The notes under the pieces: generated by a model | Database searches by the model: none | Seen by the model: the letters and a program-made list of their open reading frames with translations, nothing else | Told to the model about the DNA's origin: nothing | Part shown: piece after piece, positions 1-64,000 of the stretch | Position numbering within the stretch: position 1 is the first letter of the stretch | Layout: each line of letters opens with the position of its first letter | Origin: a virus | Virus record (IMG/VR): IMGVR_UViG_3300009103_000015 | Span: 1-64,000 of that record | Direction: 5' to 3' (one strand) | DNA length: 64,000 nt | Made by a program: the position numbers and the translations under genes

Positions 1-1143
1 GAATCATTAGCAAAAGAAGATATTCATTTTGGAATAAGCGATTACACTTCAGGTGGTAGTCCATCAGAACAACAAGATGCATTCAATAGTGCATTTGGTG
101 TAAGCACTCCAGAAGAAGAAGAACAGATAGAAGATTCCATTGATGATAAAATGAATCCAATCGAATCAGCATACTTTGATATTAAAAGTGAATATTGGGA
201 ATCGTTTATTGATGATCCAGTAAAGTTAGATGAATTTTTACAACGTGTTGAAAGTTTGAGAGCAGATGCAGAGCAAGCTGTCGCAACAATTCCAAGACGA
301 AGATCAGGTTTCTATACTCGCAGAAACTTTGACGAAGTGGAATGGCTTAACACTGTAATTAATGATATGCAAGGAATCATAAGACAAGCAGAACCAATGA
401 AGAATAACGGTTTATTTGAATCATTTCCAAGAGGTAATGTAGGCGAATCATTAGCAAGAGAAGATCAAATTCACACACAAGATGGTTGGTGGAGAAATGT
501 GCAAGATGTTGATTTTAACTTTGAATCATTACAGAAAGCAATAGCAGATATAGAATCTGCAATGAATGGTGCATCAACTTCAGAGATGATACAATTACAG
601 CAAGAATATGATTACTATAATGAACTTCTTGCAAAATTCACAGAAGATAAAAGTAATTTAGATAAATATGGTATTGTTAATCAAGACACACCAGAATATT
701 CAACTGCACCTTGGGGAATATACGAATCAAACGCAAAAGCAGTATGGAAATCTTATGAAATGGAAGATGAGTATGAAACTCAAATGCATGGACAAGGTTG
801 GAATACTGAAACAGATGAAGAAGAAGATGATCAATCTAAAGTATCACTGAACATAAATAGTGGAACTTTAACAGACAAACAAATAGAGACAGAAGAACAT
901 CATACTAAATCAGATAAAGATTCTACATCACCAGATGATGAAGGATTTTCAACTTCAAACATAGTATCAGGAAACTATGAAAAGGTAATTGGCTACAATC
1001 CTGATCCAAACCACAATCTAGGAGATCACAAATTGAAATCCAAGAAAGGAGAACGTCGTTCACAAGACAATCCAGCTAGCGAAACTCAAACATTTTATTC
1101 AAACATAATTGGTAAACTATCTGGCTTAGAAAGTGACGAATGA
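1..1143 (+). CDS. Acidic ES(K/L)AxE-motif protein 1, 5'-truncated (candidate internal head protein)
   Basis: Frame 1 is open from base 1 (ESLAKEDIHFG...) into the 151 ORF. D/E-rich; ESLAKE at 1, ESLARE at 445. Confidence 0.75.
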   Translation, partial: ESLAKEDIHFGISDYTSGGSPSEQQDAFNSAFGVSTPEEEEQIEDSIDDKMNPIESAYFDIKSEYWESFIDDPVKLDEFLQRVESLRADAEQAVATIPRRRSGFYTRRNFDEVEWLNTVINDMQGIIRQAEPMKNNGLFESFPRGNVGESLAREDQIHTQDGWWRNVQDVDFNFESLQKAIADIESAMNGASTSEMIQLQQEYDYYNELLAKFTEDKSNLDKYGIVNQDTPEYSTAPWGIYESNAKAVWKSYEMEDEYETQMHGQGWNTETDEEEDDQSKVSLNINSGTLTDKQIETEEHHTKSDKDSTSPDDEGFSTSNIVSGNYEKVIGYNPDPNHNLGDHKLKSKKGERRSQDNPASETQTFYSNIIGKLSGLESDE

Positions 1144-2720
1144 TGACCAGACAATGTCCAGAATGTTCAAGGGTTTTTGAAGACGAAGATACATTATTTG
1201 ACCACTTATTAGATACACATGGATATTCAATGGATCAAGCTGAAGATACTATTGATCTTTTGGATCTTTATGCCACACCTTCTGTAAATAAAGAATCAAA
1301 AGCAAAAGAAAGTATGGAAGATGAAGCTGGTCTTTGGTGGGATTCATTATCTATAAGCGATAGAGAAAATCTAATTGGTGGTGGTGCACAATCAGATTCT
1401 TGGCATTTAGATAAACATCTAAGTTGGAGTGAACTTCAAACAAGACCTAACTATGATCCAAGTCAACCTTTCTTTGATTCATCTACTACTGTTAATGATA
1501 TTCTCACAATCTATGTGTCAAGTTTCTATAAAGCACAAGGATTAGATGATGAACAATGGGATGAAACTGGTGGAGATTGGGATGGAAACATGAGACCAGA
1601 TTGGTCAGATACAGGTGGTCAATCAAATACTTGGTTTGGTTCAGTATTGAATCCTACATTAACTACAAGAAGTGGAAACATATTAAACTATGAATCAAAA
1701 GCAATAGAAGATGGATATTCAACAGCAAGAAGAATAATGAAACAACAAATTAGAGTTATGAGAGAAGACGGTGATACTGATGGTGCAGATGATCTTGAAT
1801 GGAAATTAGAAAATGGTTATTATGATGAATTTGGTGCAACTGGAACGCAGAATCCTGATCTTGCTGAATCCCATGCAATAGAAGTTTCATCAGAGGAAGA
1901 AGAAGTTGGTTCAGATCTATGGCAAGCTCTAGCAGAAGGAAATTTGTTAGGCGATTATGTTTTCGGTGGTATATTCAACTTTGAAATAACAATGCCTGAA
2001 TGGGCAACAGATCCACAGATAGATGTTGGTTCTATTGGTTGGTTTGAACTTTCAGATGCAGACAAACAAAATGTTGTTAATCATTTTGGTGGAGTAGATG
2101 GAATGAAAGAAAAACTATGTGATGAAGGTTGGAGTAGTTATTGTGAAGATGAAGATGGTTTTGAATCAAAAGCTAGAGAAGATAAATTAGACAAAGCACA
2201 ATTAGATATTGATGACGAAGAAGAATTTATGAATCAGGTAGATATAGCACAGAAATCAGATAATCAGAATCCATTGTTTGATATGGAAGCATTACAAAAG
2301 AAATATTCAATGTGTAATTCATGTATGGATAAAGCTTTCAAATCATTAACAAATGAATCACAAATGGCAGATGCAATGTATTCACAATGGCGTGGAACTG
2401 CAATAGGTGATGAAAGAAATTATGAGAATTGGGAAACTTTTGCATTAGCTAATGGTGTATCACAACAAGAAGCAATAGATACTTGGGAAAAATTGAATCC
2501 ATCATACGGATTTGAATCAAAAGCAATCGAAGAAATTGTTGATGATGATGGAATAAATGCAATTTGGAAATGTTCAATATGTGGAATATCTATAAGTATT
2601 CCTTCTGATTACATGGGAGATTCTGAAATACCAACACAACATCTAATGATTGATCATGGTATGACAAGAGATGAAGCTAATGATCTTGCAGAAAAAGAAA
2701 CAGATTATGGTGATTATTAA
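1140..2720 (+). CDS. Acidic modular protein 2 with N- and C-terminal C2H2-like fingers and five ESxAxE motifs
   Basis: CPEC..HLLDTH and CSIC..HLMIDH; ESKAKE, ESKAIE, ESHAIE, ESKARE, ESKAIE. Confidence 0.8.
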   Translation: MMTRQCPECSRVFEDEDTLFDHLLDTHGYSMDQAEDTIDLLDLYATPSVNKESKAKESMEDEAGLWWDSLSISDRENLIGGGAQSDSWHLDKHLSWSELQTRPNYDPSQPFFDSSTTVNDILTIYVSSFYKAQGLDDEQWDETGGDWDGNMRPDWSDTGGQSNTWFGSVLNPTLTTRSGNILNYESKAIEDGYSTARRIMKQQIRVMREDGDTDGADDLEWKLENGYYDEFGATGTQNPDLAESHAIEVSSEEEEVGSDLWQALAEGNLLGDYVFGGIFNFEITMPEWATDPQIDVGSIGWFELSDADKQNVVNHFGGVDGMKEKLCDEGWSSYCEDEDGFESKAREDKLDKAQLDIDDEEEFMNQVDIAQKSDNQNPLFDMEALQKKYSMCNSCMDKAFKSLTNESQMADAMYSQWRGTAIGDERNYENWETFALANGVSQQEAIDTWEKLNPSYGFESKAIEEIVDDDGINAIWKCSICGISISIPSDYMGDSEIPTQHLMIDHGMTRDEANDLAEKETDYGDY

Positions 2721-2722
2721 TC

Positions 2723-9270: not shown

Positions 9271-9303
9271 AATACTTAATAACATTATAAGACGATTAAA
9301 TTT

Positions 9304-10320
9304 ATGAAACTTAAAGAAATTCAACTGGAAAGAAATGAAATTACTAACTGGAAAGAATATGTAAAGCGACCAGCTAGAGATGATGACTATGAAACAATGT
9401 TAACAGAATCTTGCAAACTTATGGAAGGCGAAAAATTAATTGGTGTCTATATTGTATTACCTAAAACAAAAGAAACTGAATTATTGAGAGAAGTTGTGAG
9501 AAGAATAAATTATAATAGAAACAAAAGAACCTCTGGTTTGACTACAAATTCAAAGGTATTTGGATATCTTCCTAGAGAGATAATTAGAAAAGATTATTGT
9601 TCTTCTGCTGATTTAGCTACAACGAATGCAAAATATCATGCAGTTATTACACAGTTCGGAGAAACTCTAACTAAGAATTACAAAGAAAGTTGTCCAGAGA
9701 TGTTTGAATATCATAATGGAATAACAAAAGAAAAAATAAAAAAGGAATGGGTTATCAATAATACTCCATACACTTCAGGTATAATTAACAAAGATTCTCA
9801 ACTTAATTATCATTGGGATAGAGGAAACTACAAGAAAGTATTTTCAAACATGGTTGCTTTCAAAAACAAATGTGAAGGTGGACATTTAGCAATACCTGAA
9901 TACAATATTGGTTTAGAAATAGCAGATCTATCATTAACTTTCTTTGCTGGTCAAGAAGTTTTACATGGTGTCACTCCATTCAGAAATAATCAAGGTGGTT
10001 ATAGATACACTCTAGTTTATTACACAATGAATCAGATGTGGAAATGTGAAGATGTTTCAAAAGAAGTTGCTAGAATAAGAGAAAGAAAAACTCAACGTGA
10101 AAAGAACAGAGTGTTAAGATTACAGGGAAAGTTATCTGAAGAAGATGATCCAATAGGACAGCTTAGACAGAAAGTGAAAGATCCAAAACAATATATGAAT
10201 TATAATATATTTGCAGAATTAGGTATAGATAGAAAGTATCTAGGAGTTCCATTCACAAGGCTTCCAAAATACATACAAGAAAAATTAGTTCATTACAAAC
10301 AGAAGGAAAGAAAAGAATAA
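9304..10320 (+). CDS. TET/JBP-like 2-oxoglutarate/Fe(II) dioxygenase
   Basis: HxD (YHWDRGN), GG.L.IPEY, distal His (VLHGVTP) and 2OG-binding Arg (YRYTLVYY); adjacent to ParB as in viral TET/JBP loci. Confidence 0.8.
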   Translation: MKLKEIQLERNEITNWKEYVKRPARDDDYETMLTESCKLMEGEKLIGVYIVLPKTKETELLREVVRRINYNRNKRTSGLTTNSKVFGYLPREIIRKDYCSSADLATTNAKYHAVITQFGETLTKNYKESCPEMFEYHNGITKEKIKKEWVINNTPYTSGIINKDSQLNYHWDRGNYKKVFSNMVAFKNKCEGGHLAIPEYNIGLEIADLSLTFFAGQEVLHGVTPFRNNQGGYRYTLVYYTMNQMWKCEDVSKEVARIRERKTQREKNRVLRLQGKLSEEDDPIGQLRQKVKDPKQYMNYNIFAELGIDRKYLGVPFTRLPKYIQEKLVHYKQKERKE

Positions 10321-12865: not shown

Positions 12866-13040
12866 ATGGGATTAGGAAAAGCGTTGTTTACTGAAGTTTT
12901 GCAACAGTCTTGTCATTCAGATGGTTTTCTAGCCACTAATCCCAAACACAGTTCTGTGCTTGAACTTGTTTACTTGGAAGTTGGGCAGACTGCTTTCTGA
13001 GACACATCGCAGTTTGGGGAATGTTCAACTTCCATAGTTT
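12866..13040 (+). ncRNA. Candidate structured ncRNA (three consecutive hairpins)
   Basis: Stems 12867-12875/12936-12944, ~12944-12954/12962-12971, and 12975-12987/13022-13034 (two G-U pairs) with inner 12988-12993/13009-13014. Raised GC, TATA-like box at ~12834, T-rich 3' end. Confidence 0.6.
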
Positions 13041-14012: not shown

Positions 14013-14435
14013 ATGTTGCATCCTGAAAAGAAAGAAAAGAAAAAAGAAGTTGATGATAGAAGGGATATGGTAAATAAAATGTTGATAAAGGGAGCAACTC
14101 AATTAGAAATATCAAACCAACTAAAAATTTCCATTAGCACAGTTGAACGTGATGTTAAAGTAATAAAAGAAAATGCTAGTAAGTGGTTAGATGATTTAGC
14201 AAAGAAAGGTATTGTCCATGAATGGAAACAGGGATTAGAAAAGTTAAGAGAAACTGAAAGAAAACTAAATCAAATATTGCAAGAAAAGGAATTATCAAGA
14301 GATGATACACTTAGAATTTTAAAACAAAGAGATGAAAACATAGCATTACAAACTCAATTCTTAATGGATGGTCCAGCACTTCACGCCATAAAATCTCACA
14401 TGAATGATATAGGTGAAATTGATGACCACTTATAG
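14013..14435 (+). CDS. terS: Terminase small subunit (HTH)
   Basis: HTH ATQLEISNQLKISISTVERDV plus helical C-terminus; immediately upstream of TerL. Confidence 0.65.
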   Translation: MLHPEKKEKKKEVDDRRDMVNKMLIKGATQLEISNQLKISISTVERDVKVIKENASKWLDDLAKKGIVHEWKQGLEKLRETERKLNQILQEKELSRDDTLRILKQRDENIALQTQFLMDGPALHAIKSHMNDIGEIDDHL

Positions 14436-16206
14436 AAGTAAGATTCAAACCTTCGTTAAAACAAATACGAATTGGTTAGATGACGAAGAAGAACTTCCAG
14501 AATTACCAACTGATATTAAACAATGGATTAACGTAGCAAGACCTTTTGTTGAAGGTCAACAGATGAGAAGAAGTTTTCTAACGATTCCATTTTGGGAAGC
14601 AATCTATGAAGATAAGACACAAGACATAATGGTTGTCGCTGGAAGACAGGTTTACAAATCTACATTCGCAACAGATATTCTAGCAAATTATACTACCAGT
14701 AGAAACAATATTTCAGTTTGTTATGTAAGTTATGATGATGTTAACAGAAACGCTTTCAGTAATCAGAAATTAAGAGTTGGAACGTTTCTAACAAATCCTA
14801 TTCTACAAAGATTTCCACGTTCTGGAAAGAGTGCTGGAAACGTAGGAGAAGTTCCACTGAAAAATAATTCTACAATATATGTGACAACAGATCATTGGGG
14901 TTATAGACACGTAGAAGGAAAGTCACTTCAGGTTTGTATTCTAGACGAAGCACAATATCATGATATACAATTCTTACCTAAATTGCAAGAAGCTATGACT
15001 GCAACGAAAGGAAGATTATACATTCTAGGAATTGGTGGAGAAGCTGGTTCTCCATACGAAAGATTATGGAATGATACTGATCAAAGAGAATGGATTTACG
15101 AAGATGAGAATTGGAGAGATAAGTTGAAGTTTGATAAACATGGGTTAGTGATTGGAGATTATATGAAAGATATTTTGAAAGGTAAATGGAAATCAAATAA
15201 ACCTCACAATAAACTCTTTCATGGTTATCATATTCCACAATACATAGTTCCAACAATACCTTTGACAATAGATGATGCTGTTAAGAAATACAAACTACAT
15301 CCAAAGTTCTCGATAGAATGGAAGAAGAAACATAATCCAACTTCAATATTCAATTCTCATGTTCTTGGTGGATTCTTCCACGCTTTGAGAAGACCTGTCA
15401 CTAGGGAAATGGTAGAAGCTTGCATGGAATCTGATAAAGTATTGTTAACTCCAAGCCAGATAGCTCAAATCAAAGACAAACAACAAAACAAAGTTAAGAT
15501 TGCATTAGGAGTTGACTTTGGTAGCAGTCCTTCAAAAAGTGCAACAGTAATCTGTATTCTAATTCATTGGAGAGAAACTGATAGATATCAAATGGCATTT
15601 ATGGAAAAAAGACCAGCAGAAAATCAGATGGATCAAGCACAATACATAACAAAGTTGTTTGGTAAATGTAAATGTGATATAGGATTCGGAGACTTAGGAT
15701 ATGGAGCAATTCAAGTTAAAACAATTCAAGATGGTGGAGCAGATAGAACTTCTGGAGAAATATTTGAGGGAGTGACATCTCAAAGATTTGTAGGTTGTAG
15801 AACCGTTGGAGATGAAAGTAAACCTATGATGAGATATGATAAGAAAGTAGATGAACATGGAGAGGTCACAGGTATGATTAAACTAGACAAGACAACTATA
15901 ATCCAAGAGTTCATAGATTTGTTAGAAACTCAAGTTCCAGATAAGAAAGAACCTGAAAATGAAAAGCTAGCAAAAATGAAGTTAAGAATACCTAGTAAGA
16001 AGGATTGGGAAACAGATTGGTTGATTGATGAATTTTGTGAGATAACTCGTAGAGATCTAGATGAAATGGGAGATGTCGAGACAGGTGTTGATAAACGCAT
16101 GAAAGTCAGGAAACTCTTCAACCATCCTAGAGATTCTACAATGTCTGTGATTTATGCAATGAAAGCTCTAGAATTTACGAGTGAATGGCATTGGGTTTCA
16201 GCATAA
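14413..16206 (+). CDS. terL: Terminase large subunit
   Basis: Walker A AGRQVYKS, Walker B VCILDEAQ, RNase H-like ALGVDFG, GFGDLGYG, C-terminal HPRD. Confidence 0.85.
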   Translation: MKLMTTYRSKIQTFVKTNTNWLDDEEELPELPTDIKQWINVARPFVEGQQMRRSFLTIPFWEAIYEDKTQDIMVVAGRQVYKSTFATDILANYTTSRNNISVCYVSYDDVNRNAFSNQKLRVGTFLTNPILQRFPRSGKSAGNVGEVPLKNNSTIYVTTDHWGYRHVEGKSLQVCILDEAQYHDIQFLPKLQEAMTATKGRLYILGIGGEAGSPYERLWNDTDQREWIYEDENWRDKLKFDKHGLVIGDYMKDILKGKWKSNKPHNKLFHGYHIPQYIVPTIPLTIDDAVKKYKLHPKFSIEWKKKHNPTSIFNSHVLGGFFHALRRPVTREMVEACMESDKVLLTPSQIAQIKDKQQNKVKIALGVDFGSSPSKSATVICILIHWRETDRYQMAFMEKRPAENQMDQAQYITKLFGKCKCDIGFGDLGYGAIQVKTIQDGGADRTSGEIFEGVTSQRFVGCRTVGDESKPMMRYDKKVDEHGEVTGMIKLDKTTIIQEFIDLLETQVPDKKEPENEKLAKMKLRIPSKKDWETDWLIDEFCEITRRDLDEMGDVETGVDKRMKVRKLFNHPRDSTMSVIYAMKALEFTSEWHWVSA

Positions 16207-21779: not shown

Positions 21780-22658
21780 TTGATATACATGGTAATTCTT
21801 TCAAAGAAAGATGGAATCACAGATATACCTTCTTGTGTTATAACAGATACCTATGCAAATGAAGGATTAGTTTACAATGAAGGAGTTCAATTTTCAACAG
21901 ACTTAGAAATAGATGAATGGAAACATAAATGGAATCCTGAAAAAAGAGAGGGAAAAGATTACGGATATGTCACATACAAATTATTGAAAGGTAGAGAATC
22001 AAAATCATTTCCAAATTCTAGTTTTGAGCATAAAGCATTAACCGTAGCATTGAGAACATGGGGATTGAGAACAAAGAATATTAGATTCAAAAGAATTTAC
22101 AATGAAAATGAAGTTGCAGATATTGAAGTAAAATTTGAAACTAGGGAAGAGAATGATTATTTCAGAGATAAACCAACTGTTCTAGCATACGCATATTTTC
22201 CTAATGGAAAAAAGATTGGTGGAGATATGGTATTCAATGATTCTATTTGGTGGTCAGAAGATGGAGAATCAGTAAATGCACATGAATTAGATCCTGATAA
22301 TTATCCAGCAGATACTAAAACCCAAATAAAGACATACAATCTAGTTCACGTAATGATACACGAAGCTGGTCACGCATTAGGCTTGAAACATCAAACCAAA
22401 TGTAAAGAATGTGTAATGTATCCTTATTATTCTGGAAAGGTTGTTCTTCATGATGATGGAGATAGAATGTTTAGAGTTCATGGTTCAGAATACCCATTGA
22501 CCAAAAAAGCCTACGATTATTATGTAAAGAATGGATATACTCCAGAACCAATAGAAATGCCACACGATGTTGATAGAATACAAAGTTTCTATGGAAAAAG
22601 AACCTTAAGTCAAAGAATTATTGATTATTTTAGACGTAGAAATGAAAGGAAGTATTAA
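21780..22658 (+). CDS. Matrixin-family (M10) zinc metallopeptidase, no signal peptide
   Basis: ADIEVKF, VLAYAYFP..IGGD, HEAGHALGLKH, Met-turn VMYPYY, DVDRIQSFYG. Confidence 0.9.
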   Translation: MIYMVILSKKDGITDIPSCVITDTYANEGLVYNEGVQFSTDLEIDEWKHKWNPEKREGKDYGYVTYKLLKGRESKSFPNSSFEHKALTVALRTWGLRTKNIRFKRIYNENEVADIEVKFETREENDYFRDKPTVLAYAYFPNGKKIGGDMVFNDSIWWSEDGESVNAHELDPDNYPADTKTQIKTYNLVHVMIHEAGHALGLKHQTKCKECVMYPYYSGKVVLHDDGDRMFRVHGSEYPLTKKAYDYYVKNGYTPEPIEMPHDVDRIQSFYGKRTLSQRIIDYFRRRNERKY

Positions 22659-28148: not shown

Positions 28149-31100
28149 TTGGCTATCCTCAAGGTATTCCAGAATAGTATATTTGATTCTGACTTATTTC
28201 AAGCTCAAACAATAGGTAAGACATTCCAATCTAACATATTTGATAGTGATATCTTTCAACAAATACCTACCTTAACAAGTATAGATAATGTATTTCAAAC
28301 TGATATCTTTCAGAAAGTTTATGGTGGAAAATTATTATTCCAAAAACAATATACAATATCAACGAGTTCTGAAATAGCTAAAGTATTTCAATCTAGTATA
28401 TTTGATTCTGATTTATTCCAAACAACTTCATTCACTCCAACGATATATCCTAAGAAAGTATTCCAGAATAACATATTCCAGAATGTATTATTCCAAACAA
28501 AACAATTAGCTAATGCTGGAAAGTATATCTTCCAAAGTGGATTATTCCAAGCAGATGTATTTGATGTTCCAAACCTTATCAAGATTTCAATAAGTGAAAT
28601 GATGAGTATCATTGAAGTTCAACCTGAAAAGGTCATGGGATTTGTAAACACATTCAATGATTCTGCAATAGAAATTCTAATGACTATATACAAAGTCATG
28701 GGTAAAACCAAGACTGCTGGTCTTGATGCTGTATCAACTACTGAACTTCAATATCATACAAGAGCTCGGAAGAATCACATCCAAGAAGTTTTAGATTTAT
28801 CAGAGTTTATTAGTTTTAGTAAGAAGACAGATAATACAAGTGTAGAAAAGGTATTTCAGTCTAACATATTTCAATCATCAGTATTCCAAAAGAAGTATAA
28901 GAGAATTAGAGAATCAGCAGATAAAGTATTCAGTTCAATATATCAAAGTGATGTATTCCAAACATTAGGTTTCAAGTTATTAGATATTCCAAATGTATTC
29001 ACATCAATATTTCAGAAAGATATATTCCAAGTTGCTCACACAGTATCAAACCCAGCACCATTCCAAACAAACATCTTCCAATCTAACATATTCCATATCA
29101 CAGTAAAGATAAAACACGCAATCAATGAGAGTGTTGCAATTTCTGAATCAGTTTCATTCGCTAAAGGTAAACCACAAACAATTTCAGATAATGTAGGAAT
29201 TAGTGAACAGAATAATTATATTGAAAACGCATTAGGACAGGCAAAGTCTGAAACAAGAAATGAATCACTATCAATCACTGAATCAATTTCATTCGTAAAG
29301 AAGAAAGTAAAAACAGTTAGTGAAGATGTTTCAGTAGTAGAAGTATTAGATGCAGAAGCAAAGAGAGATCCAAATGTAGTTGCTAAATTATTCCAAACCA
29401 ATATCTTTGATCAGGACATATTTCAAAAGAGATTCCTACTCAAACGACTACAAATATCCAAAGTATTTCAGCTTAACATATTTGATACTGATATTTTCCA
29501 ACAGGTTTTCAATCCTGATGTTATCACTAAGATATTCCAGACAAATGTATTCTCAACTAAATTATTCCAGCAAGAAACAAAGCATAGTGCATTAGGAATT
29601 ATTCAATCAATATTCCAAGTAGGACTATTCCAATCTGATACTTTCCAAACTATTGTTCCAATTCCAAAGATACCAGCACTTGATAGTGTAGGTATAACTG
29701 AAACAATTTCTACAAGAAGAATAAGAAAGAATCCAAAGAGTGTTTCAGAAAACATTTCAATCTCTGAAGGTTTGGTTAGCAGAAAGGGAGATGTTAAAAC
29801 AATCTCTGAATCTATTGGAGTATCAGATTCATTATCATCACAATCAGGTTTCGTTAGAACCACAACAGAAAATGTTTCTATTTCAGAATCAATATCATTC
29901 AAGAAACATAAACAAATTGATGAAACAATTAATGTTTCTGAATCTGTAATAAGACCAAGAGGAATAGTTAGAACAATTTCTGATGGATTAGGTATCACTG
30001 AATCAATAGTAAGACCAAGACCAATAACTAGAATAATTAATGAAACAATATCAATCACTGAATCATTAGTTAAACCTTGGTTCAAGAGAATAGATGAAGC
30101 AGTTGGAATTACTGAATCTGTTCAAAGAGTGAGAAAATTAATCAGGACTTTCAACGAGAATATTTCAATCACAGAAACAGGTAAACCTGAATTTTATAGA
30201 TTATCAGAAAAATTCTTTGAGAAAGTTTTCCAAACAAACGTATTCCAACAAGATGTATTCCAAAAGAAGTATGATGCTAATGCAATTAAGAAAGCAATAT
30301 TCCAATCATTCTTCCAAAGTGATATATTCCAACAGGCATATCAACCATTAGCAAGAACAAAGAAAACAGTATTCCAAACTGACATATTCGATTCTAAATT
30401 ATTCCAATTTGAGTATAATGTTGAAAAACCACTTGCAAGATTATTCCAAAGAAGTGTATTCCAAAATAATATATTCCAAGCAAGAAAATTATTCAAACCA
30501 TCTACAAGTGTTAAGAAATTATTCCAAACGAATGTATTCCAAACAGATTATAGAAAGAGAGTATTCCAACAGGCATTTGATACTGCTGTAATTAAGATTA
30601 GAAACGTATTCAGTGGAATATATCAATACCCATTATTCCAAGCACCTGAACCAATAAGAAAACCAATAGAAGAGATAGAAGGAATATCAGAATCATTAGT
30701 TGTAATTGGTGGAAAACCACAGAGTATTCCTGAAACAATTAATGTTGTTGAATCAACTTCAAGGTCCAGAACATTAGTTAGAAGTATTTCAGATTCAGTT
30801 GGAGTATCAGATACAATTCCATATTACAAACAAAGAACATGGAAGATTCCTCAATCAGATACCATTGGTGTCACAGAAGAAATTACTACAAAGAAAAGAC
30901 AGGTCACATACTTTGTCAATAAAATATTCCAAACTGATATCTTCGACCAAGACATATTCCAAAAGAAATGGGATCAACATAAACTCATTACAAAAGTGTT
31001 CCAATCTAATATCTTTGATACTGACATATTCAGTCAAGGTTTCAATAAGTTCATCATTCCATCTATATTCCAAACGAATGTATTTGGTGGAAAGTTCTGG

Positions 31101-37100: not shown

Positions 37101-38129
37101 ATACACGCAGTATCTGAATCTGTTTCAATCACTCAATTCCAAGAAAGATTAAGAAAGATACTAGCAAGAATCATAACAGAATCAATCTCTATATCTGAAG
37201 TAGAACAACGTGTAAGAAATATCAGTAGAATTGATACTGCTTCAATCTCAATCTCTGAAACCAATGAGAGATTAAGAAAAGTATTAGCTAGAATCATAAC
37301 TGAAACTATTGGTATCACAGAAACATTAGATAGACTTTCAAACAAACGTAGAGTTGTATCTGAATCAATTTGGGTTTATGAGTTTAGAGGAAGAGCAAGA
37401 GAGTTAATCAGAGCAATAATAAATGAAACACTATCCATATCTGATTCTGCAATTAATGTAAGAGGTAGAATAAAATCAATAGCAGATACTGTCACAATAA
37501 CAGAACTGATTTCCAAATCAATCATTCTGATAAAGATGATTTCGGATTCAGTAGGAATAACAGAATCTACAAACATAAGAAAATTGATTTCTGTAAAGAT
37601 TGCAGAAGTAGTTTCAATCACAGAATCAGTGATACGAATAAGACCTGTAATAAGAGTAATCACAGAATCAATAGGAATCACAGAATCAGTATTATCATTC
37701 CTCATTCGTGATATAATCAAAGTCATATCAGAATCAGTTTCAATCGCAGAAGAATCTGTTGTTTCAAGATGGATTGGATTAGTATCTACAATATCTAGAG
37801 TTAGATTAGAAAGTGTAAGCATAAGCAGAATATTAACCGAGAAAGATTCAGTATCAAGAATAGTAAGAATCACAGAAGTTGTATCAAAGATATTCACAAT
37901 CGCAGAATTAGAAACAATATCAAGAATAATAACCTCAAAACTATTCACTTCCAGAATAGTAAGTGTGAAAGAGTTCAAATCTTACAGAAGAATATTTGAG
38001 TTCTTATCTAGAATATACTCACAGAAAGAAACATCTTCAGAAATAAAATCTAGTGAAATACAAGAATCAGTCGTGAGAAATGTTAAAAGTGCTGTATCTA
38101 GAATAAGAAATATCTTTAAATTTGAATAG
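28149..38129 (+). CDS. Giant 3326-aa repeat protein (FQ pentad blocks plus ~20-aa ISESIGITE repeats), putative virion fibre
   Basis: Uninterrupted 9.98-kb ORF with a TTG start, two interleaved repeat types, within the structural gene block. Confidence 0.75.
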   Translation: MAILKVFQNSIFDSDLFQAQTIGKTFQSNIFDSDIFQQIPTLTSIDNVFQTDIFQKVYGGKLLFQKQYTISTSSEIAKVFQSSIFDSDLFQTTSFTPTIYPKKVFQNNIFQNVLFQTKQLANAGKYIFQSGLFQADVFDVPNLIKISISEMMSIIEVQPEKVMGFVNTFNDSAIEILMTIYKVMGKTKTAGLDAVSTTELQYHTRARKNHIQEVLDLSEFISFSKKTDNTSVEKVFQSNIFQSSVFQKKYKRIRESADKVFSSIYQSDVFQTLGFKLLDIPNVFTSIFQKDIFQVAHTVSNPAPFQTNIFQSNIFHITVKIKHAINESVAISESVSFAKGKPQTISDNVGISEQNNYIENALGQAKSETRNESLSITESISFVKKKVKTVSEDVSVVEVLDAEAKRDPNVVAKLFQTNIFDQDIFQKRFLLKRLQISKVFQLNIFDTDIFQQVFNPDVITKIFQTNVFSTKLFQQETKHSALGIIQSIFQVGLFQSDTFQTIVPIPKIPALDSVGITETISTRRIRKNPKSVSENISISEGLVSRKGDVKTISESIGVSDSLSSQSGFVRTTTENVSISESISFKKHKQIDETINVSESVIRPRGIVRTISDGLGITESIVRPRPITRIINETISITESLVKPWFKRIDEAVGITESVQRVRKLIRTFNENISITETGKPEFYRLSEKFFEKVFQTNVFQQDVFQKKYDANAIKKAIFQSFFQSDIFQQAYQPLARTKKTVFQTDIFDSKLFQFEYNVEKPLARLFQRSVFQNNIFQARKLFKPSTSVKKLFQTNVFQTDYRKRVFQQAFDTAVIKIRNVFSGIYQYPLFQAPEPIRKPIEEIEGISESLVVIGGKPQSIPETINVVESTSRSRTLVRSISDSVGVSDTIPYYKQRTWKIPQSDTIGVTEEITTKKRQVTYFVNKIFQTDIFDQDIFQKKWDQHKLITKVFQSNIFDTDIFSQGFNKFIIPSIFQTNVFGGKFWQKQYDTRKLGKYIFTTVFQSDVFQAPFKKKKSVVDTIGISESSSKVKGFVKKVDESLGITETLSKIVRKTITKSISETVGISEIKKFAKSLQVTVTENVEIIDLTRKKLERVIFTIPRIFQTNIFDQDVFQKLWDPTATAISKIFQSNVFDTDVFQQAFSTNIKPKIFDQDIFQVNVFQTKSHDILKKSKSIFTGGIFQVNVFQTPQKLTKSVYDNVGIVESAIKKVIPQISKSISESVGVVESSSKSVGKTKTVPLDNVGITETTGYAKLLKKSISDSVSILDLTRKKLEQVIFTIPRIFQTNIFQQPTSSYPKYIFQKLWDPSSTSIAKVFQSDVFDNDLFQQASDTNIKPKVFTSIFQHNIFQTKQQDLAKKSKVVFQVKVFHSNVFQSAIQVKKTIYDTIGVVESTVRKIIPQISKSISENLGIVESISKSIGKTKTVPTDSVGITESTGFAKLLKKSVSDTVGIIDLTRYNKEQTIFTIPRVFQTNIFDNDVFQQLWDPSSTSISKVFQSNIFDTDVFQQGFFTNIKSKVFQNIFQHNVFQTKIFDIKKKATKIFQVKVFDFKVFQSPIGIFKAIYDTVNVAESTVKKIIPQISKSINENVGISESENKSIGITKTAPTDSVSISETTQFAKKLTKTITESAITIYDFTKHFKKQTIFTIPKVFQSNVFDTDVFQTLYNPLATAFSKVFQSNVFDQDVFQKAYDSVIRPAVFTSVFQSKVFQKAVDTRKIRTKPFQYKVFQYNVFQAPQLLKESIYETVNVNESIATRKENVVRAQKTDTVGITESVSTVKGIAKDTTESVGIVETVYKSIGVVKSVTEPVSVVEVLTKFDWRKITFIYKVFQDFFQENVFQQQYNIFPFSGRRTAKIKKLFQSNVFDNDVFQSKVFDLDIIPRVFNQWVFQQPSDEYPYPVFQRLYKLSEHEETRTKIFQQNIFQSNLFSVRLPLHIEYKQEYGTDPPIAINESISIVLGKNQRINENIGISESISFNTAQNQTISESVGITENFSRSRSLVRIFTEELPILMFRDGWLTPRNLVRTIDETVGITETKTFLQGMIKTISESVSVDEFRQRLRKPIVRSIAEAISIAESVVRVRPVIRSIFEDVFIDGFSYEGIGKAVRDRTRIVSETVSVDEFRQRLRKLLVRTVSDNVSIADVPNKARGIARTLSDSLGITDLSVRTRNRIKSISDSVSITESIVRVFTLARSINETVNVEMFRDRARVIARSISESIGIIESTVYARILNRILSESVSVEEALSKARTLSRIISDSVGLTELPKTARTISRAVADSIGLTESISKARTLARSISDSVDISEFRGKARDLIRVFVNETVGIVESTSRVRSLARSVVENIGITDVISKARTLVRSVSDSIGITESLVKARSIARGIVESTGIVESIGRARGVARTITDSLEMYEFGWLGLRLPLRVLGRSRIVNESLAISESPTSVRGRLKRIAESIGITEAKSKALGFVRTLTESAISITETLNRVRAVSRPISESVGITDARDIQRALSRILSENVAVSESLVKVRTMIRVLSESVAISEVPTKVRIILRMISESIGITETISRARGLYKIINESVGITMFRNSGRLIARIISDSIGITEAKNIFRNRFRAIQESVSLTEAIVRIRSLSRIISDNVAVAEVSEKIRIILRSISESISIAETVARSRTLSRMLSESVSVTQFRNSARIIARVITESISISETAIRVRGIARILQESVGLVESIDIQRALSRIRAETIAITESTSKFRLRLRSIVESVGITEVPVRVRGLSRIISESVGITMFRNSARLIARIISESISVAESITTLRGRLRAIIESIGITDVPTRAKTIARIILETVAVEDFRGRARELIRVIVNESVAITEAIHKQFFIARAISEGIAIAESIVRSRGLSRIISESTSISESLVRLRTLSRAIAEVVNTTEFRGRARELLARVISESIAITESSIKVRGRLKRIAESVAITPETTSRAIGFVRTVPLDVIGITESFSKVRGRIHAVSESVSITQFQERLRKILARIITESISISEVEQRVRNISRIDTASISISETNERLRKVLARIITETIGITETLDRLSNKRRVVSESIWVYEFRGRARELIRAIINETLSISDSAINVRGRIKSIADTVTITELISKSIILIKMISDSVGITESTNIRKLISVKIAEVVSITESVIRIRPVIRVITESIGITESVLSFLIRDIIKVISESVSIAEESVVSRWIGLVSTISRVRLESVSISRILTEKDSVSRIVRITEVVSKIFTIAELETISRIITSKLFTSRIVSVKEFKSYRRIFEFLSRIYSQKETSSEIKSSEIQESVVRNVKSAVSRIRNIFKFE
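31407..33600 (+). repeat. Four tandem ~545-560-nt super-repeats inside the giant gene
   Basis: Units begin D(L/F)T..K..Q.IFTIP(R/K).FQ at ~31407, ~31950, ~32511, ~33054. Confidence 0.75.
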
Positions 38130-41553: not shown

Positions 41554-44304
41554 ATGACTTTGAAAAAACGTGTCACAGAATACTTTGATGATGAAGACCT
41601 GAAAAGTATTAACTCTAAAGAAGTGAATCCAGATGAGAAAGAATGTGAGAGTTGTGGTTTCAAAACAGCAGATAATGAAGAATTTGAAGACCATTTACAA
41701 TCTCATAAGGATATTTCAGATGAGTTTTGGAATAACAATTATAATAATTTTGTAAATTATCAACTAGCAAATCTTAAGAAGAAAACAGGAACTGAAAGTG
41801 TTGATCTTCTCATGGGAAAGATTTCAGCACAAGAAGGTAAGAAAATCAAAGGAACTCTAGCTTATGCTGGTGTTTCATTAAACAACAGATTATATCTTCC
41901 AGAACAATTAGCAAAAGGCGATGGTCAAACATTACCACTTATAGTAAATCATGCTTCAACTTCAGGTGCTGAAGGAGAACTTCATAGACTTCCAGATACA
42001 TTTAGAGAAGGATTAGTAAATGGAAAAGAAATGAAAGTAGGAACTGTTAAACTTAATTGGGATCCAGAAGCATTAACATTGTATTATTCAGGAGAAGTAG
42101 ATGATGAGTTTTTCCAAAAAGAAATTGGAGAAGCTGATATGGCAGTATCTCTAGGAATGTATTATGATGCAAACTCGCCTCAAGTTTGTGATAAAGAATG
42201 TTATACAGTCATAAAAGGTGGAGAATTTTCTGAAGTTTCATTGGTCTATCATGCAGGTTTTCCAATAGCAACTATTGAAGCAAATGAAGCTGTTCTAAGA
42301 AAGAAAGGTATGGAAGCATTAAAGTTTTCAAGAACTGAAGATCCATTACCTTGTTCAAAGAAATCTGAAGAAGCACTCGGTCCTCACAGTCCAGAATATG
42401 ATCAGGTCATCAATGATCCTAATGAAAATCCAACAACTTCAGGTAGAGGAGTAGGAAATATTCAACCTGAAACTAGAGTAGCTCAAAGAAGAATGGATGA
42501 AAATGAAATTGGAGTCACATCATCTAATGATTTGGAAAAATCAAAAGAAGAAGTTTCTGGTCCACCAACTTCTACAACACCAACAGTTATTCGTGAAAAA
42601 AATACATATAAAGAGAGTTTAAATAGTAAGAACAAGATTATGTCTGACGAAATTGACAAAAACGAAATATCAGCCGAACCAAAAGCTGAAAACACAGAAA
42701 CCGAAGAAGAAGAAATAAAATCTAAAGATGCAGAATCACAAGCATCTGGAACTTTTTCTGATGGTGGCGGTGCTCAATGCGAAGACCAAGGTAAAATTTG
42801 GGATGCAGAGACCGAGAAATGTGTTGATGTAAACGGTTCAGTTCAAAAGGAAGTCCCTTCTGGCGTTAAGACTAACGTTTCAGATGGTGGCAAGTCAGGA
42901 GAAAACAGAAGAGTTAGACCAACATCTTATCGTAGAAGTTCTGTTCCAAACGCAGATATTGCTTCAGAAAAACGAAGAGTAAAAGAATATTACAAGAAAT
43001 TGGATAGACTTGAAGCTCTACGTGGTATGAAAGTATCAGAAGCAAGAATCAAAGCAAAAGAACAATACTTGAAAGAAAAACGATTAGATAGTTTAATTCG
43101 TGGTGCTAAAGAAAGTGCAAGACCAAAAGCTATTGTAAGTCGCAAGACAGCAAAAGCTGGTGAAGCATTTGGCAAAGTAAAAGCTGACGAGAAAGAAGTC
43201 ACTGGTCCAGCAAGATGGTATCAAGCCATCAAGAACGAAGAGAACGTTCCAAATTCATTTATCTGGCACGTTAACAAACAAGGAATCTTCGAGAACAGTG
43301 ATCAACGTTTCATCAAATCTTACGATGCTAACGAAAACACCCAATATGCTCCTTTGACATCAGACCAAAAGAAAGCTTCCGAAGCAGTGACTGGTCCAGC
43401 AGGTAATGATTTCATGAGAATCATGTCCGAGCAGGTTCTAGTATTGCCAAACGGAAAAGTAGTCACACCAATTCGTCAATTCTGTGAAACCAAAGTGTTG
43501 CCAACAGGCACAAAAGAAGCATTCTTCTATGACTTTGGTGCAGTAGGATTCAGCGACATCACTGAAGATGGTTCAACAGTTGTTGGAGAATCTGCAGTTG
43601 TTGTTAGATCTGCTGGTGGTCCAGCAGGTGCTAGAGGAACAAAACTCATTCTAGGTTATACTCAAATTGAGGAAAGCCCAATCGATTTGATTGCAAGTGC
43701 AAACAGATCATTCGCATTAGAATCAGTAAACGATGAATCAAAAGAAGTTGTAAACGTATCATACAACACAGATTCAGGTTCCGCAGGCGATGCTACAAAC
43801 AGAAAAGCAGTTGGTGGTGGTTCAAAAGCAAACAGATGGGTATCTCACAGTGGTTCACAAATCACAGCAGATGCATCTGGTCTTGGAAACTTAACTTTCG
43901 CTGGATTAGTTTCAGCAAAAGGAGTTATCGAAGATGAAGGTCTTGATCCTAGCAACTTAGTCACATACACAACAGGAAAAGCAATTCGTGATCTTGTATT
44001 TGATCCAGATCTCGATAGTTTCATATCCTTTAGTCGTCCAGCAATCATTACAGAAGCAACTGTCGAAAGAATCGCAGGAACTAATGTAGTAAGATCTTCT
44101 GCTTTAGCAAGTGGATCACAATCTGGATCTAGCAGATCCGTAATGTTTGTTCCAAACATTGCATTCGGCTTGATTTCAGGAAGAGATCTAACTATGGAAG
44201 CACAAAGAAGAAATGAGCTCCAATCAATTTTCTTGACTGGAACACAGAGGATTGCAGGATTCACAAAGAACGTGGAAGCAACCTGTCGTATATCTCACTT
44301 ATAG
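41554..44304 (+). CDS. Fused C2H2 finger - prohead protease - scaffold - HK97-fold major capsid protein
   Basis: CESC..HLQSH; protease-like motifs GVSLNNRLY, LIVNH, VSLG, FSEVSLV; charged linker; C-terminal ~306 aa with ERIAGTNVV and LISGRDLTMEAQR...TQRIAG. Confidence 0.8.
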   Translation: MTLKKRVTEYFDDEDLKSINSKEVNPDEKECESCGFKTADNEEFEDHLQSHKDISDEFWNNNYNNFVNYQLANLKKKTGTESVDLLMGKISAQEGKKIKGTLAYAGVSLNNRLYLPEQLAKGDGQTLPLIVNHASTSGAEGELHRLPDTFREGLVNGKEMKVGTVKLNWDPEALTLYYSGEVDDEFFQKEIGEADMAVSLGMYYDANSPQVCDKECYTVIKGGEFSEVSLVYHAGFPIATIEANEAVLRKKGMEALKFSRTEDPLPCSKKSEEALGPHSPEYDQVINDPNENPTTSGRGVGNIQPETRVAQRRMDENEIGVTSSNDLEKSKEEVSGPPTSTTPTVIREKNTYKESLNSKNKIMSDEIDKNEISAEPKAENTETEEEEIKSKDAESQASGTFSDGGGAQCEDQGKIWDAETEKCVDVNGSVQKEVPSGVKTNVSDGGKSGENRRVRPTSYRRSSVPNADIASEKRRVKEYYKKLDRLEALRGMKVSEARIKAKEQYLKEKRLDSLIRGAKESARPKAIVSRKTAKAGEAFGKVKADEKEVTGPARWYQAIKNEENVPNSFIWHVNKQGIFENSDQRFIKSYDANENTQYAPLTSDQKKASEAVTGPAGNDFMRIMSEQVLVLPNGKVVTPIRQFCETKVLPTGTKEAFFYDFGAVGFSDITEDGSTVVGESAVVVRSAGGPAGARGTKLILGYTQIEESPIDLIASANRSFALESVNDESKEVVNVSYNTDSGSAGDATNRKAVGGGSKANRWVSHSGSQITADASGLGNLTFAGLVSAKGVIEDEGLDPSNLVTYTTGKAIRDLVFDPDLDSFISFSRPAIITEATVERIAGTNVVRSSALASGSQSGSSRSVMFVPNIAFGLISGRDLTMEAQRRNELQSIFLTGTQRIAGFTKNVEATCRISHL

Positions 44305-53946: not shown

Positions 53947-54344
53947 GTGAAACAGAAAAAAACTACGATCCAGCAAAAAAAGCTAAGTTTTCTGAATTGA
54001 AGACGGAATGGGCAAAACTAAAGAAAGAAAGTAGTGCTAGTGATTCTGAACGTGCAACAGCAAAACAAAGAATCAATGCAATACAAAGGGAACTTGATTT
54101 AGAAGTCACCGATTTCAATGCTCCAAAGAAAACGAATAATGCTTCAAATTCATCAGGATCTCCACAGAGATCTAACGAAGCAAGATTCACAGAAGTAAAA
54201 GCTTTCCATGATACAGCAGGGAAATTAGCCAATGATATATTGGATAGTTTCTATGCAAACAATGGATTGACACCTGAACCAAAAGAAAGACTAATCGCTT
54301 GGGAAGGACTTTTGAAAAGCTTTGCAATCGTGTGGAGTAGATGA
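53943..54344 (+). CDS. Hypothetical protein upstream of radA
   Basis: 133 aa, two helical domains joined by an S/N linker. Confidence 0.6.
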   Translation: MSETEKNYDPAKKAKFSELKTEWAKLKKESSASDSERATAKQRINAIQRELDLEVTDFNAPKKTNNASNSSGSPQRSNEARFTEVKAFHDTAGKLANDILDSFYANNGLTPEPKERLIAWEGLLKSFAIVWSR

Positions 54345-54381
54345 ACCACACTATCCTTCCCTTTTTTATGGAGATGTTAAA

Positions 54382-55674
54382 ATGGTAAAAGAAACAAAAA
54401 AGAAAGAAACAAAAAAGAAAGCAACGGTTAAATCAAAGAAAGAAGATAAAGAACCAATGACGGAAAATACAGAAGTAGAAACAACTGAAACCGAACTCAC
54501 TGAAACTGAAGTAGAATCAGAAGATGAGGTTAAGAAAAAACTACTTAGAGAAATGCTGACAACGAAAGAAACAAAAGATCCTGAAGAAGTTGACGAAATT
54601 AAAAAACAGGAACTTGAAATCGAAGAATTTGACATAGCAAAACTAGATGGAGTTGGAACTGTTCGTAAGAATAGATTGAACGAAGCTGGTATTCATACTG
54701 CTATGGATATTGTCACTGCTGGTCCAATGCCTTTGGCAGAACTAACTGGAATGGAAGTTGCTATGACAGAAAAGATGGTTAGAAAAGCAAGAGAATTTTT
54801 AGAAGCGAGTGGTGCTATTAGAAATTCATTCATGAAGGCAAGTGAACTCAAAGAATACAGAGACACAAAAATAAATTCTAAAAGATTGAAAACAGGTTCA
54901 TCAGCACTTGACAATTTGTTAGGTGGTGGAATAGAACCACAAGCTGTCACAGAGTTCTATGGAGTTTATGGTTGTGGAAAAACACAGATTTGTCATAGTC
55001 TTGCTGTAAGATGTCAATTACCTGAAGATCAAGGTGGTTTGAATGGAGAAGTTGTATGGATAGATACAGAAAACACGTTTAGACCAGAACGTATCGCAGA
55101 CATTGTTTGTGAGAACGAATTGATACCTATCAAAAAACGCAAGAAAGGTGAAAAAGCTATTCCAGAAAATCAAATGGATTTAGTAAAGTTTTTGGACAGA
55201 ATAACTGTCGCAAGAGCTTCTAGTGCATCTCATCAGGAATTAGTTTTAGAACAGATGGCACAACAACTCAAACTGGAATCTGAAGATAAGAAAGATGGAG
55301 ATCCAAGAATTGTTCTTGTGATTGTTGATTCATTAACAACTCACTTTAGATCAGAATATCTAGGTCGTGGACAACTTGCTCCAAGACAAGCAGAGTTAGG
55401 AAAGTTTCTACATAAAGTATCACGAATAGCAGAAGTGTATAACATTGCTGTTGTTGTGACAAATCAAGTATTATCTAATCCAGATCCCTTTGGAAATCCA
55501 ATTCGACCTGTCGGTGGAAACATCGTAGCTCATACTTCAACGTATAGAATTTGGTTAAGAAAAGGAACTAAAGGTAAAAGAGTAGCAAAGATGGATGATA
55601 GTCCAATGCACGCCCAAAACGAAGCAGTCTTTGAATCAGATGTTCGTGGAGTTGTGGATTCAGATGGAACTTGA
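54382..55674 (+). CDS. radA: Archaeal RadA recombinase
   Basis: HhH LDGVG; LDNLLGGGIE; Walker A GVYGCGKTQ; IDTENTFRPERI; IVDSLTTHFRSEY.GRG.L..RQ; VTNQV; GGNIVAH; start re-assigned from 54322. Confidence 0.95.
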   Translation: MVKETKKKETKKKATVKSKKEDKEPMTENTEVETTETELTETEVESEDEVKKKLLREMLTTKETKDPEEVDEIKKQELEIEEFDIAKLDGVGTVRKNRLNEAGIHTAMDIVTAGPMPLAELTGMEVAMTEKMVRKAREFLEASGAIRNSFMKASELKEYRDTKINSKRLKTGSSALDNLLGGGIEPQAVTEFYGVYGCGKTQICHSLAVRCQLPEDQGGLNGEVVWIDTENTFRPERIADIVCENELIPIKKRKKGEKAIPENQMDLVKFLDRITVARASSASHQELVLEQMAQQLKLESEDKKDGDPRIVLVIVDSLTTHFRSEYLGRGQLAPRQAELGKFLHKVSRIAEVYNIAVVVTNQVLSNPDPFGNPIRPVGGNIVAHTSTYRIWLRKGTKGKRVAKMDDSPMHAQNEAVFESDVRGVVDSDGT

Positions 55675-62647: not shown

Positions 62648-62659
62648 ACAATTAGAAAT

Positions 62660-63967
62660 ATGAAAGCAAAAACAAAAACAAAACAATCCACTCAATCAGG
62701 TGGAAGTAGTGGAGAAGTAATGCCTGAAAAGAAAGTGACAATAGTAAAAGAAGCCGAAAATAAAAAAGAAGTGATGGGCGATTATTTGAAAACCATCGCT
62801 GATACTATCTTCGGTGGTAAAGAACTTGATGGAAATGTAAAACGTTCTTGTCAAGCAATTTACCAACAAGAGTTGAAGAACGGTAGAAGAAAGAATCCTG
62901 TCGTTAGTAAAGATGGAAAGATATTAGATCCTTCCAAATTCAAAAGACTAGTGACACGATATACTAAGTTATTGAATACTGTTGACAAGACAGATCACCC
63001 AGCAGAAGTTTCAGTAGGTTCTTCTAATGGAAGTTCTTCTAATGGAAGTTTAATGTCAGTTCAAGTTCCAGTTGATCATACTAAGTATATTGAATTAAAC
63101 ATTCCACACTACGTTGAAGTTCATAGTGAGTTTAAAGTATTTGATGCTCACATGAAAAGTGGTATTCCACTTTTAATTCAAGGACCGAAAGGTATTGGTA
63201 AGACACTTGGCTTAGCAAAATACGCTGAAAAGAAAAGATGTCCTATCATAGAATATGATTGCTCTGAAGGAACTAAGAAGTATGATCTTCAAGGAACTAA
63301 GACTGGAGTTGCTGGTGGAGTGACTCCATTCGAGTTAGGATTCATTCCAAGAATCATAGAATGTGCTAATCAATTTGGTATGGCTATTCTTGTTCTCGAA
63401 GAACTTAACGCATTAACTCCAGCGATGCAAAAACTTCTAAACCCATTACTCGATTGGAGAAAAGGAATGTATATTCCAGAGATTGGAAAACGTTTCAAAC
63501 TTAATGATGGAGTTAAACTTGGTATATTTGCAACAACCAATCCAGCATCTTATCAGGCTTCCAATGATCTTAACGAAGATCTTCAATCAAGATTCAGTAT
63601 TTGGAAATGGAATTATCCTAACGTAAGACAAGAAAGAAAAGCAATTCAATGGCGTGGAGTTGATACTAGTATTCAGAAAGGTATCATGCTACTTGCAAAG
63701 AACACCAGAGACTTCGTAGAACAACAGAAGTTATCATACGCATTATCAACTAGAGATATTCAGAAGTTCATTGATGCCTATGTTTCTTACGAAGAAGATT
63801 CCGTAGAAATACTTAGGTTATGTTTAGACATGAATGTTATTTCCTTCTACGACGAAGTCGGTGAGATATCAACAGTGAAAAGTAGAATTGAATCTGCATT
63901 TGGTTCTAACATCTTTACTGCTAAAGGCGACGAAGCATTGGAAAATGCTTCAGATGAGGAATTATAG
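62660..63967 (+). CDS. MoxR/CbbQ/CobS-like AAA+ ATPase
   Basis: Walker A GPKGIGKT, Walker B ILVLEELN, IFATTNP, LNEDLQSRF, LSTRDI. Confidence 0.85.
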   Translation: MKAKTKTKQSTQSGGSSGEVMPEKKVTIVKEAENKKEVMGDYLKTIADTIFGGKELDGNVKRSCQAIYQQELKNGRRKNPVVSKDGKILDPSKFKRLVTRYTKLLNTVDKTDHPAEVSVGSSNGSSSNGSLMSVQVPVDHTKYIELNIPHYVEVHSEFKVFDAHMKSGIPLLIQGPKGIGKTLGLAKYAEKKRCPIIEYDCSEGTKKYDLQGTKTGVAGGVTPFELGFIPRIIECANQFGMAILVLEELNALTPAMQKLLNPLLDWRKGMYIPEIGKRFKLNDGVKLGIFATTNPASYQASNDLNEDLQSRFSIWKWNYPNVRQERKAIQWRGVDTSIQKGIMLLAKNTRDFVEQQKLSYALSTRDIQKFIDAYVSYEEDSVEILRLCLDMNVISFYDEVGEISTVKSRIESAFGSNIFTAKGDEALENASDEEL

Positions 63968-64000
63968 AAATGTCATACTTCACTGATTCAAACAACAACT

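Follow-up and report, generated by a model that had tools for sequence, protein, structure and literature searches.

Some sixteen palindromic DNA words, and with them three dipeptides, are missing from the genome of a putative Nitrosopumilaceae head-tail virus

Restriction-site avoidance, for which passages of a 2021 review (PMC8410138) cite Sharp (1986) and Rocha (2001), is strongest in non-integrating double-stranded DNA phages and archaeal viruses (Rusinov et al. 2018, PMC6286503). The latter survey says nothing of codons or amino acids, and the 2021 review states that a nonsynonymous contribution to site avoidance 'cannot be excluded'. Among archaeal viruses, haloarchaeal tailed viruses methylate themselves or lack the motif, and the motif of the Dam methyltransferase is missing from those that do not carry this enzyme (Liu et al. 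2021, PMC8651126). In passages of a Lake Baikal study (PMC7678222), radA and ATPase genes are called typical of marthaviruses. A literature search of incomplete coverage turned up no work on either dipeptide loss or the avoidance of restriction by thaumarchaeal viruses. Here we analyze a 77,876-bp viral record, IMGVR_UViG_3300009103_000015, whose first 64,000 bases constitute the window, and report that this putative virus of ammonia-oxidising archaea lacks, or nearly lacks, about sixteen families of palindromic words, and that its predicted proteins contain no Ala-Ala, Pro-Gly or Trp-Pro.

Within the window, GCNGC and CCNGG are both absent (0 copies each), against first- and second-order Markov expectations of 30-35 and 38-43 copies, respectively (Poisson probability of zero copies <1e-13 each), and neither occurs anywhere in the complete genome. 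The avoidance of these two sites had been proposed in an earlier reading made without database searches (the sequence-only reading), and the counts bear it out, but the two named sites turn out to be a small part of a purge that spans about sixteen palindromic families, window- and genome-wide. An unbiased scan that covered 4,048 motifs (palindromic, degenerate or gapped), with observed and expected counts computed for the whole genome, identified 15 non-redundant palindromic families at or below 5% of expectation, for which about 870 sites were expected and 7 were found:

CTSAG: 1 observed, 135 expected
GTAC: 0 observed, 135 expected
GASTC: 3 observed, 114 expected
GTWAC: 0 observed, 92 expected
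RCATGY: 1 observed, 65 expected
CTRYAG: 1 observed, 46 expected
CCNGG: 0 observed, 46 expected
CAATTG: 0 observed, 41 expected
GAATTC: 0 observed, 40 expected
GCNGC: 0 observed, 35 expected
GGCC: 0 observed, 34 expected
GTMKAC: 0 observed, 34 expected
CATATG: 1 observed, 27 expected
CCGG: 0 observed, 17 expected
GCGC: 0 observed, 13 expected

CGCG and TTCGAA are likewise purged. The purge is specific to palindromes: under a synonymous-codon null, strong depletion outside the 15 families is confined to GAGSC/GSCTC, CCCAGA/TCTGGG and the palindrome TTCGAA. Furthermore, it is selective among palindromes, with GATC (264 observed, 346 expected), CTAG (212 and 187) and AGCT (160 and 201) at ordinary levels, as are CATG, TGCA, TTAA and AATT. 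We take the purged words to correspond to the sites of RsaI, HaeIII, Fnu4HI/Bsp6I, ScrFI/LlaMI, HpaII, HhaI, NspI, SfeI, AccI, EcoRI, MfeI, NdeI and BstBI, and CTCAG and GAGTC to be recognized by the Type IIS enzymes BspCNI and PleI/MlyI.

The same counts bear on the possibility that the missing words follow from base composition, from CpG depletion or from a general avoidance of palindromes, or that they reflect a sequencing or assembly artefact at modified motifs. The genome is indeed AT-rich (33% GC), with CpG at 0.36 of expectation, and these properties by themselves make CCGG, GCGC and CGCG rare. However, under the Markov and codon-aware nulls, the missing words are still expected in tens to hundreds of copies. 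GTAC, GTWAC, GAATTC and CAATTG are free of CpG, many other palindromes occur at ordinary levels, and the words are present in relatives of like composition. Together with the evidence from an independent sample given below, these results make an explanation of this kind highly improbable.

GCNGC and CCNGG are missing whatever the reading frame or strand, and from non-coding DNA as well. When synonymous codons were shuffled without altering any protein, the expected counts were 155 for GTAC, 100 for GTWAC, 74 for CTRYAG, 66 for CTSAG, 59 for GASTC, 39 for CAATTG and 37 for GAATTC, compared to between 0 and 3 observed copies of each. The codons themselves reveal how this is achieved. Tyrosine following a codon that ends in G is encoded by TAT in 88 instances and by TAC in none, whereas elsewhere TAC is used 229 times and TAT 460 times; this context-dependent choice indicates that selection acts on the DNA and not on the proteins. 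Valine preceding threonine is encoded by GTC (43) or GTG (20) in 63 of 63 cases, and never by GTA or GTT, even though these two make up 82% of valine codons. None of the 530 GTA codons is followed by a codon starting with C, the codon pairs GAA-TTC and CAA-TTG do not occur, and cysteine before threonine is always TGC.

For three of the words, synonymous change was not the main route of loss. Shuffling synonymous codons leaves 5 out-of-frame copies of GCNGC, 12 of CCNGG and 12 of GGCC, while shuffling codon order predicts 66, 57 and 25 copies, respectively; comparison of the two nulls thus indicates that these words were removed mainly through changed amino-acid neighbours. The effect on the proteome, evaluated on 98 greedily called open reading frames totalling 23,794 residues, is complete. 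Ala-Ala is absent, against 53 occurrences expected from composition and 59.9 from within-gene shuffling of codon order (200 shuffles, none below 42), and so is Pro-Gly, against 45 and 45.3 (minimum 27), respectively, as the sequence-only reading had observed by eye. That reading had missed Trp-Pro, which is also absent (10.7-11.4 expected), a consequence of the total loss of GGCC, since TGG-CCN always holds this word. These expectations are fair for such proteomes, because relatives with ordinary site density show observed/expected ratios of 1.20 for Ala-Ala and 0.94 for Pro-Gly.

Two features had been put forward in the sequence-only reading as plentiful internal controls, and neither is a clean one. 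Gly-Pro, which is tied to GGNCC, occurs 18 times against 45 expected, with a glycine codon before proline that is always GGT or GGA, and each of the 20 copies of GGNCC found genome-wide has the form GGWCC. GANTC is plentiful as claimed (395 copies), but, apart from the three GASTC copies listed above, only as GAWTC.

The converse possibility, that selection at the protein level against Ala-Ala and Pro-Gly (for instance, as protease sites) led to the disappearance of the DNA words, has nothing specific in its favour and is hard to credit. The words are also gone out of frame and from non-coding DNA, and about 29 out-of-frame copies expected with proteins held fixed are reduced to 0, which rules out a purely protein-level cause; furthermore, the loss of GGCC explains that of Trp-Pro, and a dozen other palindromes have been purged purely synonymously.

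The genes in which these losses were followed, and others referred to below, are located in the window as follows:

8671-9270, ParB_N protein, upstream of the Tet_JBP gene
9304..10320, + strand, Tet_JBP dioxygenase (Pfam, E 9e-11)
11285-11842, P-loop kinase-like protein, downstream of the Tet_JBP gene
14413..16206, + strand, large terminase (TerL), used as query for relatives
21780-22658, + strand, matrixin gene (Pfam), with Pro-Asn-Gly at 22200..22208
28149..38129, + strand, 3326-aa repeat protein, whose C-terminal half is Ala-rich, yet without Ala-Ala
41554..44304, + strand, 916-aa capsid-region gene, with three rare survivors of purged words and 5 of the 20 GGWCC sites
54322..55674, + strand, RadA/Rad51 recombinase (Rad51/RadA domain), without Ala-Ala, Pro-Gly or Trp-Pro

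Comparison of individual positions with homologues, which the sequence-only reading had proposed as a check, is consistent with replacement of the dipeptides. TerL residues 98-99 (nt 14704-14709) are Asn-Asn in the window and Pro-Gly in 53 of 120 homologues. In the matrixin, said in the same reading to lack its usual Pro-Gly, the segment YFPNGKKIGGD aligns with FPPGPNYGGD of MMP-13, and solved MMP structures indeed carry Pro-Gly(-Pro) at the position of Pro-Asn-Gly. An orthologous site encodes EAAK (GAA-GCA-GCA-AAA) in one related locus, L002, and EASK (GAA-GCT-TCA-AAG) in another, L001. RadA says little: a search of its homologues for conserved Ala-Ala or Pro-Gly columns yielded only residue 227, a single weak column, which is part of Leu-Ala in the window and of Ala-Ala in 32 of 114 distant homologues. 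A genome-wide orthologue comparison with 94 related loci found few shared proteins besides TerL, and hence provided no large substitution table, and comparison of the P-loop kinase, cited in the sequence-only reading for its GVAGTGKT segment, with solved structures gave no useful match. Of the motif examples offered in that reading, the matrixin is the one confirmed.

Several lines of evidence bear on the nature of the element and its host. The 77,876-bp record carries a 119-bp direct terminal repeat, is classed by IMG/VR under direct terminal repeats and is rated 100% complete by CheckV. Its coding is strongly polarized, with 91 of the 98 open reading frames on the + strand, which in the window contains 25,352 A and 17,443 T. 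Pfam matches include a portal protein (weak, SPP1/Mu type), a Rad51/RadA recombinase (E 1e-72), an AAA_5 ATPase, a matrixin, ParB_N and Tet_JBP. The complete genome contains no match to the methyltransferase families PF00145 and PF01555 or to the tyrosine integrase family PF00589, other methyltransferase and integrase families not having been searched, and no restriction nuclease family was detected among the scanned proteins or in the whole genome. GenBank phages include no close relative (top TerL identity, 22%). TerL homologues at 50-58% identity number in the hundreds, one of them in the genome of Nitrosopumilus koreensis AR1, and a scan across prokaryotes, with each species represented by a single genome, yielded 24 TerL loci (39-56% identity), almost all in Nitrosopumilaceae and spread over Nitrosopumilus, Nitrosarchaeum, Nitrosotenuis and Nitrosopelagicus, in some cases on contigs of 130-450 kb. 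Because TerL relatives lie almost exclusively in genomes of this family of ammonia-oxidising archaea, the predicted assignment of the host to the Nitrosopumilaceae is well supported at the family level. These features are best explained if the window makes up the larger part of a complete viral genome, that of a head-tail virus which infects Nitrosopumilaceae and probably does not integrate.

To place the purge among its relatives, we counted words in up to 22 kb around TerL homologues at 70 IMG/VR loci and 24 genome loci, referred to by L numbers, and inferred a TerL phylogeny of 63 rows with FastTree. The window sits in a purging clade of 13 rows, which groups with clades whose members reside in genomes of Nitrosopumilaceae and have ordinary counts. 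The integrated TerL-bearing elements of this family show near-expected word counts; at least one of them is a cryptic element and not a provirus (Krupovic et al., PMC6563490).

The relatives differ in the words that they have lost. Distinct purged sets are seen in L001, L002, L003-5, L007, L009-12, L016-20, L017 and L026/27. L002 has purged AGCT, GGCC and CCNGG; L003-5/45 have purged GGCC, GCNGC, CCNGG, GGNCC and CAATTG; L007 has purged GTAC, GCNGC, GCGC and CGCG, yet is rich in GGCC and CCGG; L016/19/20/32 have purged AGCT and GGCC; L017 has purged CCNGG and CCGG; and L026/27 have purged GCNGC. AGCT, at ordinary levels in the window, is fully purged in L002, L016, L019, L020 and L032 (0-1 copies against 24-59 expected). 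On the TerL tree, a quick tree with several long branches, the minimum number of state changes per word ranges from 1 to 6, with 6 for GGCC and CCGG, 5 for CAATTG, 4 for GCNGC and GCGC, 3 for GGNCC, and 2 for CCNGG and GTAC.

Dipeptides vary among the relatives as well. Ala-Ala is missing from L001, L003-5/45, L007, L009/49 and L026/27, and Pro-Gly from L001, L002, L009-12/24/49 and L017. Gly-Pro is absent, alongside purging of GGNCC, from L003-L005, L009-L012, L017, L024 and L049 (0 against 5-9 expected in each). This is a fourth forced dipeptide loss, found in the relatives and not in the window. Together with the loss of out-of-frame copies and the codon-context effects, the differing sets of the relatives support the proposal of the sequence-only reading that selection on DNA words, of the kind expected from restriction avoidance, removed Ala-Ala and Pro-Gly.

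The relative L001 (IMG/VR 3300032006_000102), which comes from another sample and is about 85% identical at the nucleotide level, shares all purges with the window except that of GTAC, of which it retains 11 copies against 38 expected. Hence, the GTAC purge looks younger than the others, or GTAC avoidance is being lost in L001. Where L001 GTAC sites can be aligned, the window shows varied point differences (GTAT, CTAC, AAAC, ATAC and GTTC) that fit no single miscall, and this variety, like the recurrence of the same purge in a second sample, argues against a systematic base-calling artefact.

A further locus, L072 (CAZQBE010000063.1), is a 10-kb contig binned in a 'Flavobacteriaceae' metagenome-assembled genome, with TerL (53%) and portal (50%) proteins related to those of the window. 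It purges a set of its own (GGCC, GCGC, CGCG, CTSAG, RCATGY and GTMKAC) and is probably a mis-binned archaeal virus contig.

Taken together, these data very probably reflect restriction-site avoidance of the classical kind in an extreme form, which forced the loss of the three dipeptides. Under such a scenario, a virus without a PF00145 or PF01555 methyltransferase of its own would have shed Type II, and perhaps Type IIS, sites word by word along its lineage, under selection by restriction enzymes met in the host population. Most sites would have been lost through synonymous codons chosen according to the neighbouring codon. Where no synonymous route exists (GCN-GCN always contains GCNGC, CCN-GGN always contains CCNGG, and TGG-CCN always contains GGCC), the Ala-Ala, Pro-Gly and Trp-Pro pairs themselves would have been replaced, leaving a proteome without them. 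The lack of matches to PF00145, PF01555 and a tyrosine integrase would be in keeping with the rule that sites are purged by viruses which are neither protected nor temperate (PMC6286503; PMC8410138). The role of restriction enzymes as the selective agent, and the identity of these enzymes, are inferred.

On the host side, we surveyed 201 species representatives of the corresponding GTDB family, in tallies that include the unpublished genomes G081, G096 and G097. C5 methyltransferases (PF00145) are present in 51 of the 201 genomes, with up to 8 matches each, and N6/N4 methyltransferases (PF01555) in 190, with 1-14 matches each. Most of the 201 genomes encode a PF01555 protein of about 260 aa with near-equal scores (E ~1e-40 to 1e-44), which suggests a conserved, possibly orphan N6/N4 methyltransferase of the family. 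RE_LlaMI nucleases (E 1e-55 to 1e-60) adjoin top-scoring C5 methyltransferases in two genomes, G170 and G118, and were found in no others; we take this Pfam entry to represent a CCNGG-cutting family. An EcoRII-C nuclease lies beside a C5 methyltransferase in G043 and an HNH nuclease beside one in G024. Judged by these homologies, a predicted CCNGG/CCWGG-type system is present in the host family. The closest solved relatives of the family's C5 methyltransferases are M.HhaI and the 3lx6/3me5 methyltransferase, which is insufficient to assign specificities. The methyltransferase-rich genomes G041 and G045 are unlikely candidates for the host, at 60% GC.

The predominance of methyltransferases over identifiable nucleases in this survey is what would be seen if the words had been avoided to escape methylation, with methyltransferases of the host or of neighbouring strains marking the sites and methyl-directed (Type IV-like) nucleases destroying the marked DNA. 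The viral Tet_JBP protein, of a kind that acts on modified or modifiable bases, would also suit this scheme. Nevertheless, the same data are explained by classical restriction-site avoidance, and C5 methyltransferases of the family do adjoin ordinary Type II nucleases, so that we regard methylation escape as unlikely. Alternatively, the virus or a co-infecting element could make its own sequence-specific nucleases against host DNA, and would therefore have to lack their sites. This is very unlikely, given that no restriction nuclease family, nor either of the methyltransferase families sought, was detected in the virus, that about sixteen specificities would be needed, and that close relatives differ in single words.

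A number of observations nonetheless weigh against classical avoidance. Sixteen specificities would be many for a single host population. The CCNGG/CCWGG-type system is the only one identified in the host family, and in just 2-3 of the 201 species representatives, while a homologue of RE_Bsp6I (GCNGC) was found in 0 of 201 genomes, a search for which the 14 control genomes (0 of 14) provided no positive control. The sequence-only reading had held that the missing words predict the restriction-modification repertoire of the host, and the survey offers a candidate counterpart for CCNGG (2 of 201 genomes), while the RE_Bsp6I search, for want of a positive control, is uninformative about GCNGC. 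Sampled host DNA shows no avoidance of the purged words, with near-expected counts in 80 kb of chromosome from each of four Nitrosopumilaceae genomes and in 15 kb from a fifth. Lastly, Tet_JBP may modify the virus DNA, in which case there should be less need to lose sites.

In this last respect, the ParB_N protein, Tet_JBP and the P-loop kinase (8671-11842) could, by their predicted domains, constitute a DNA-modification module. Tet_JBP homologues occur in L001, L002, L016, L019, L020 and L031; apart from L031, for which there are no word counts, all of these lineages purge sites.

The few surviving copies of purged words are unevenly placed. Four of ten cluster between 40935 and 43618 (GAGTC at 40935 and 42512, GCCTC at 42177 and CTGCAG at 43592), a segment that covers the end of the portal gene and part of the 916-aa capsid-region gene and that also holds 6 of the 20 GGWCC sites. 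This clustering could reflect stronger protein constraint or recent import. The sole CTSAG copy in the genome lies elsewhere:

12997..13001, CTGAG, at the end of a small open reading frame in an intergenic-like region

These results indicate that escape from restriction can go beyond synonymous change and bar amino-acid pairs across a whole proteome. The purged words amount to a list of predicted host specificities, comprising GTAC, GTWAC, GCNGC, CCNGG, GGCC, CTSAG, GASTC, RCATGY, CTRYAG, GTMKAC, GAATTC, CAATTG, CATATG and others, in a group of globally important ammonia-oxidising archaea whose defence systems and viruses have barely been studied experimentally. We tentatively suggest, at somewhat less than even confidence, that the diversity of restriction-modification systems in the Nitrosopumilaceae, with at least ten specificities met by one virus lineage, may be the main force shaping these viruses. 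If so, it has removed dipeptides repeatedly and independently, with Ala-Ala affected at least four times along the TerL tree and each of Pro-Gly, Gly-Pro and Trp-Pro in several lineages, and missing viral dipeptides could be taken as a record of the restriction specificities of the host population and a measurable cost of defence escape to protein evolution. In protein data alone, the absence of Ala-Ala, Pro-Gly, Gly-Pro and Trp-Pro can serve as a cheap screen to flag heavily restricted viruses.

The virus described here is an extreme case of a known escape strategy, and not a new mechanism. As in the viruses surveyed by Rusinov et al., Type II words are scarce, the effect is absent in integrated relatives, and purged sets are lineage-specific; unlike in that survey, about sixteen word families are at or near zero in a single genome, and the purge reaches protein sequence, with three dipeptides lost. 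It resembles the haloarchaeal tailed viruses (PMC8651126) in being an archaeal head-tail virus that purges motifs, but those viruses infect another host phylum and avoid one motif per virus, with no amino-acid effect reported. Judged by their published description, it may be similar to the marthaviruses of marine and freshwater Nitrosopumilaceae (PMC7678222), being a probable head-tail virus that carries radA and an ATPase gene and has TerL relatives in Nitrosopumilaceae; the passages of that study considered here contain nothing on restriction words.

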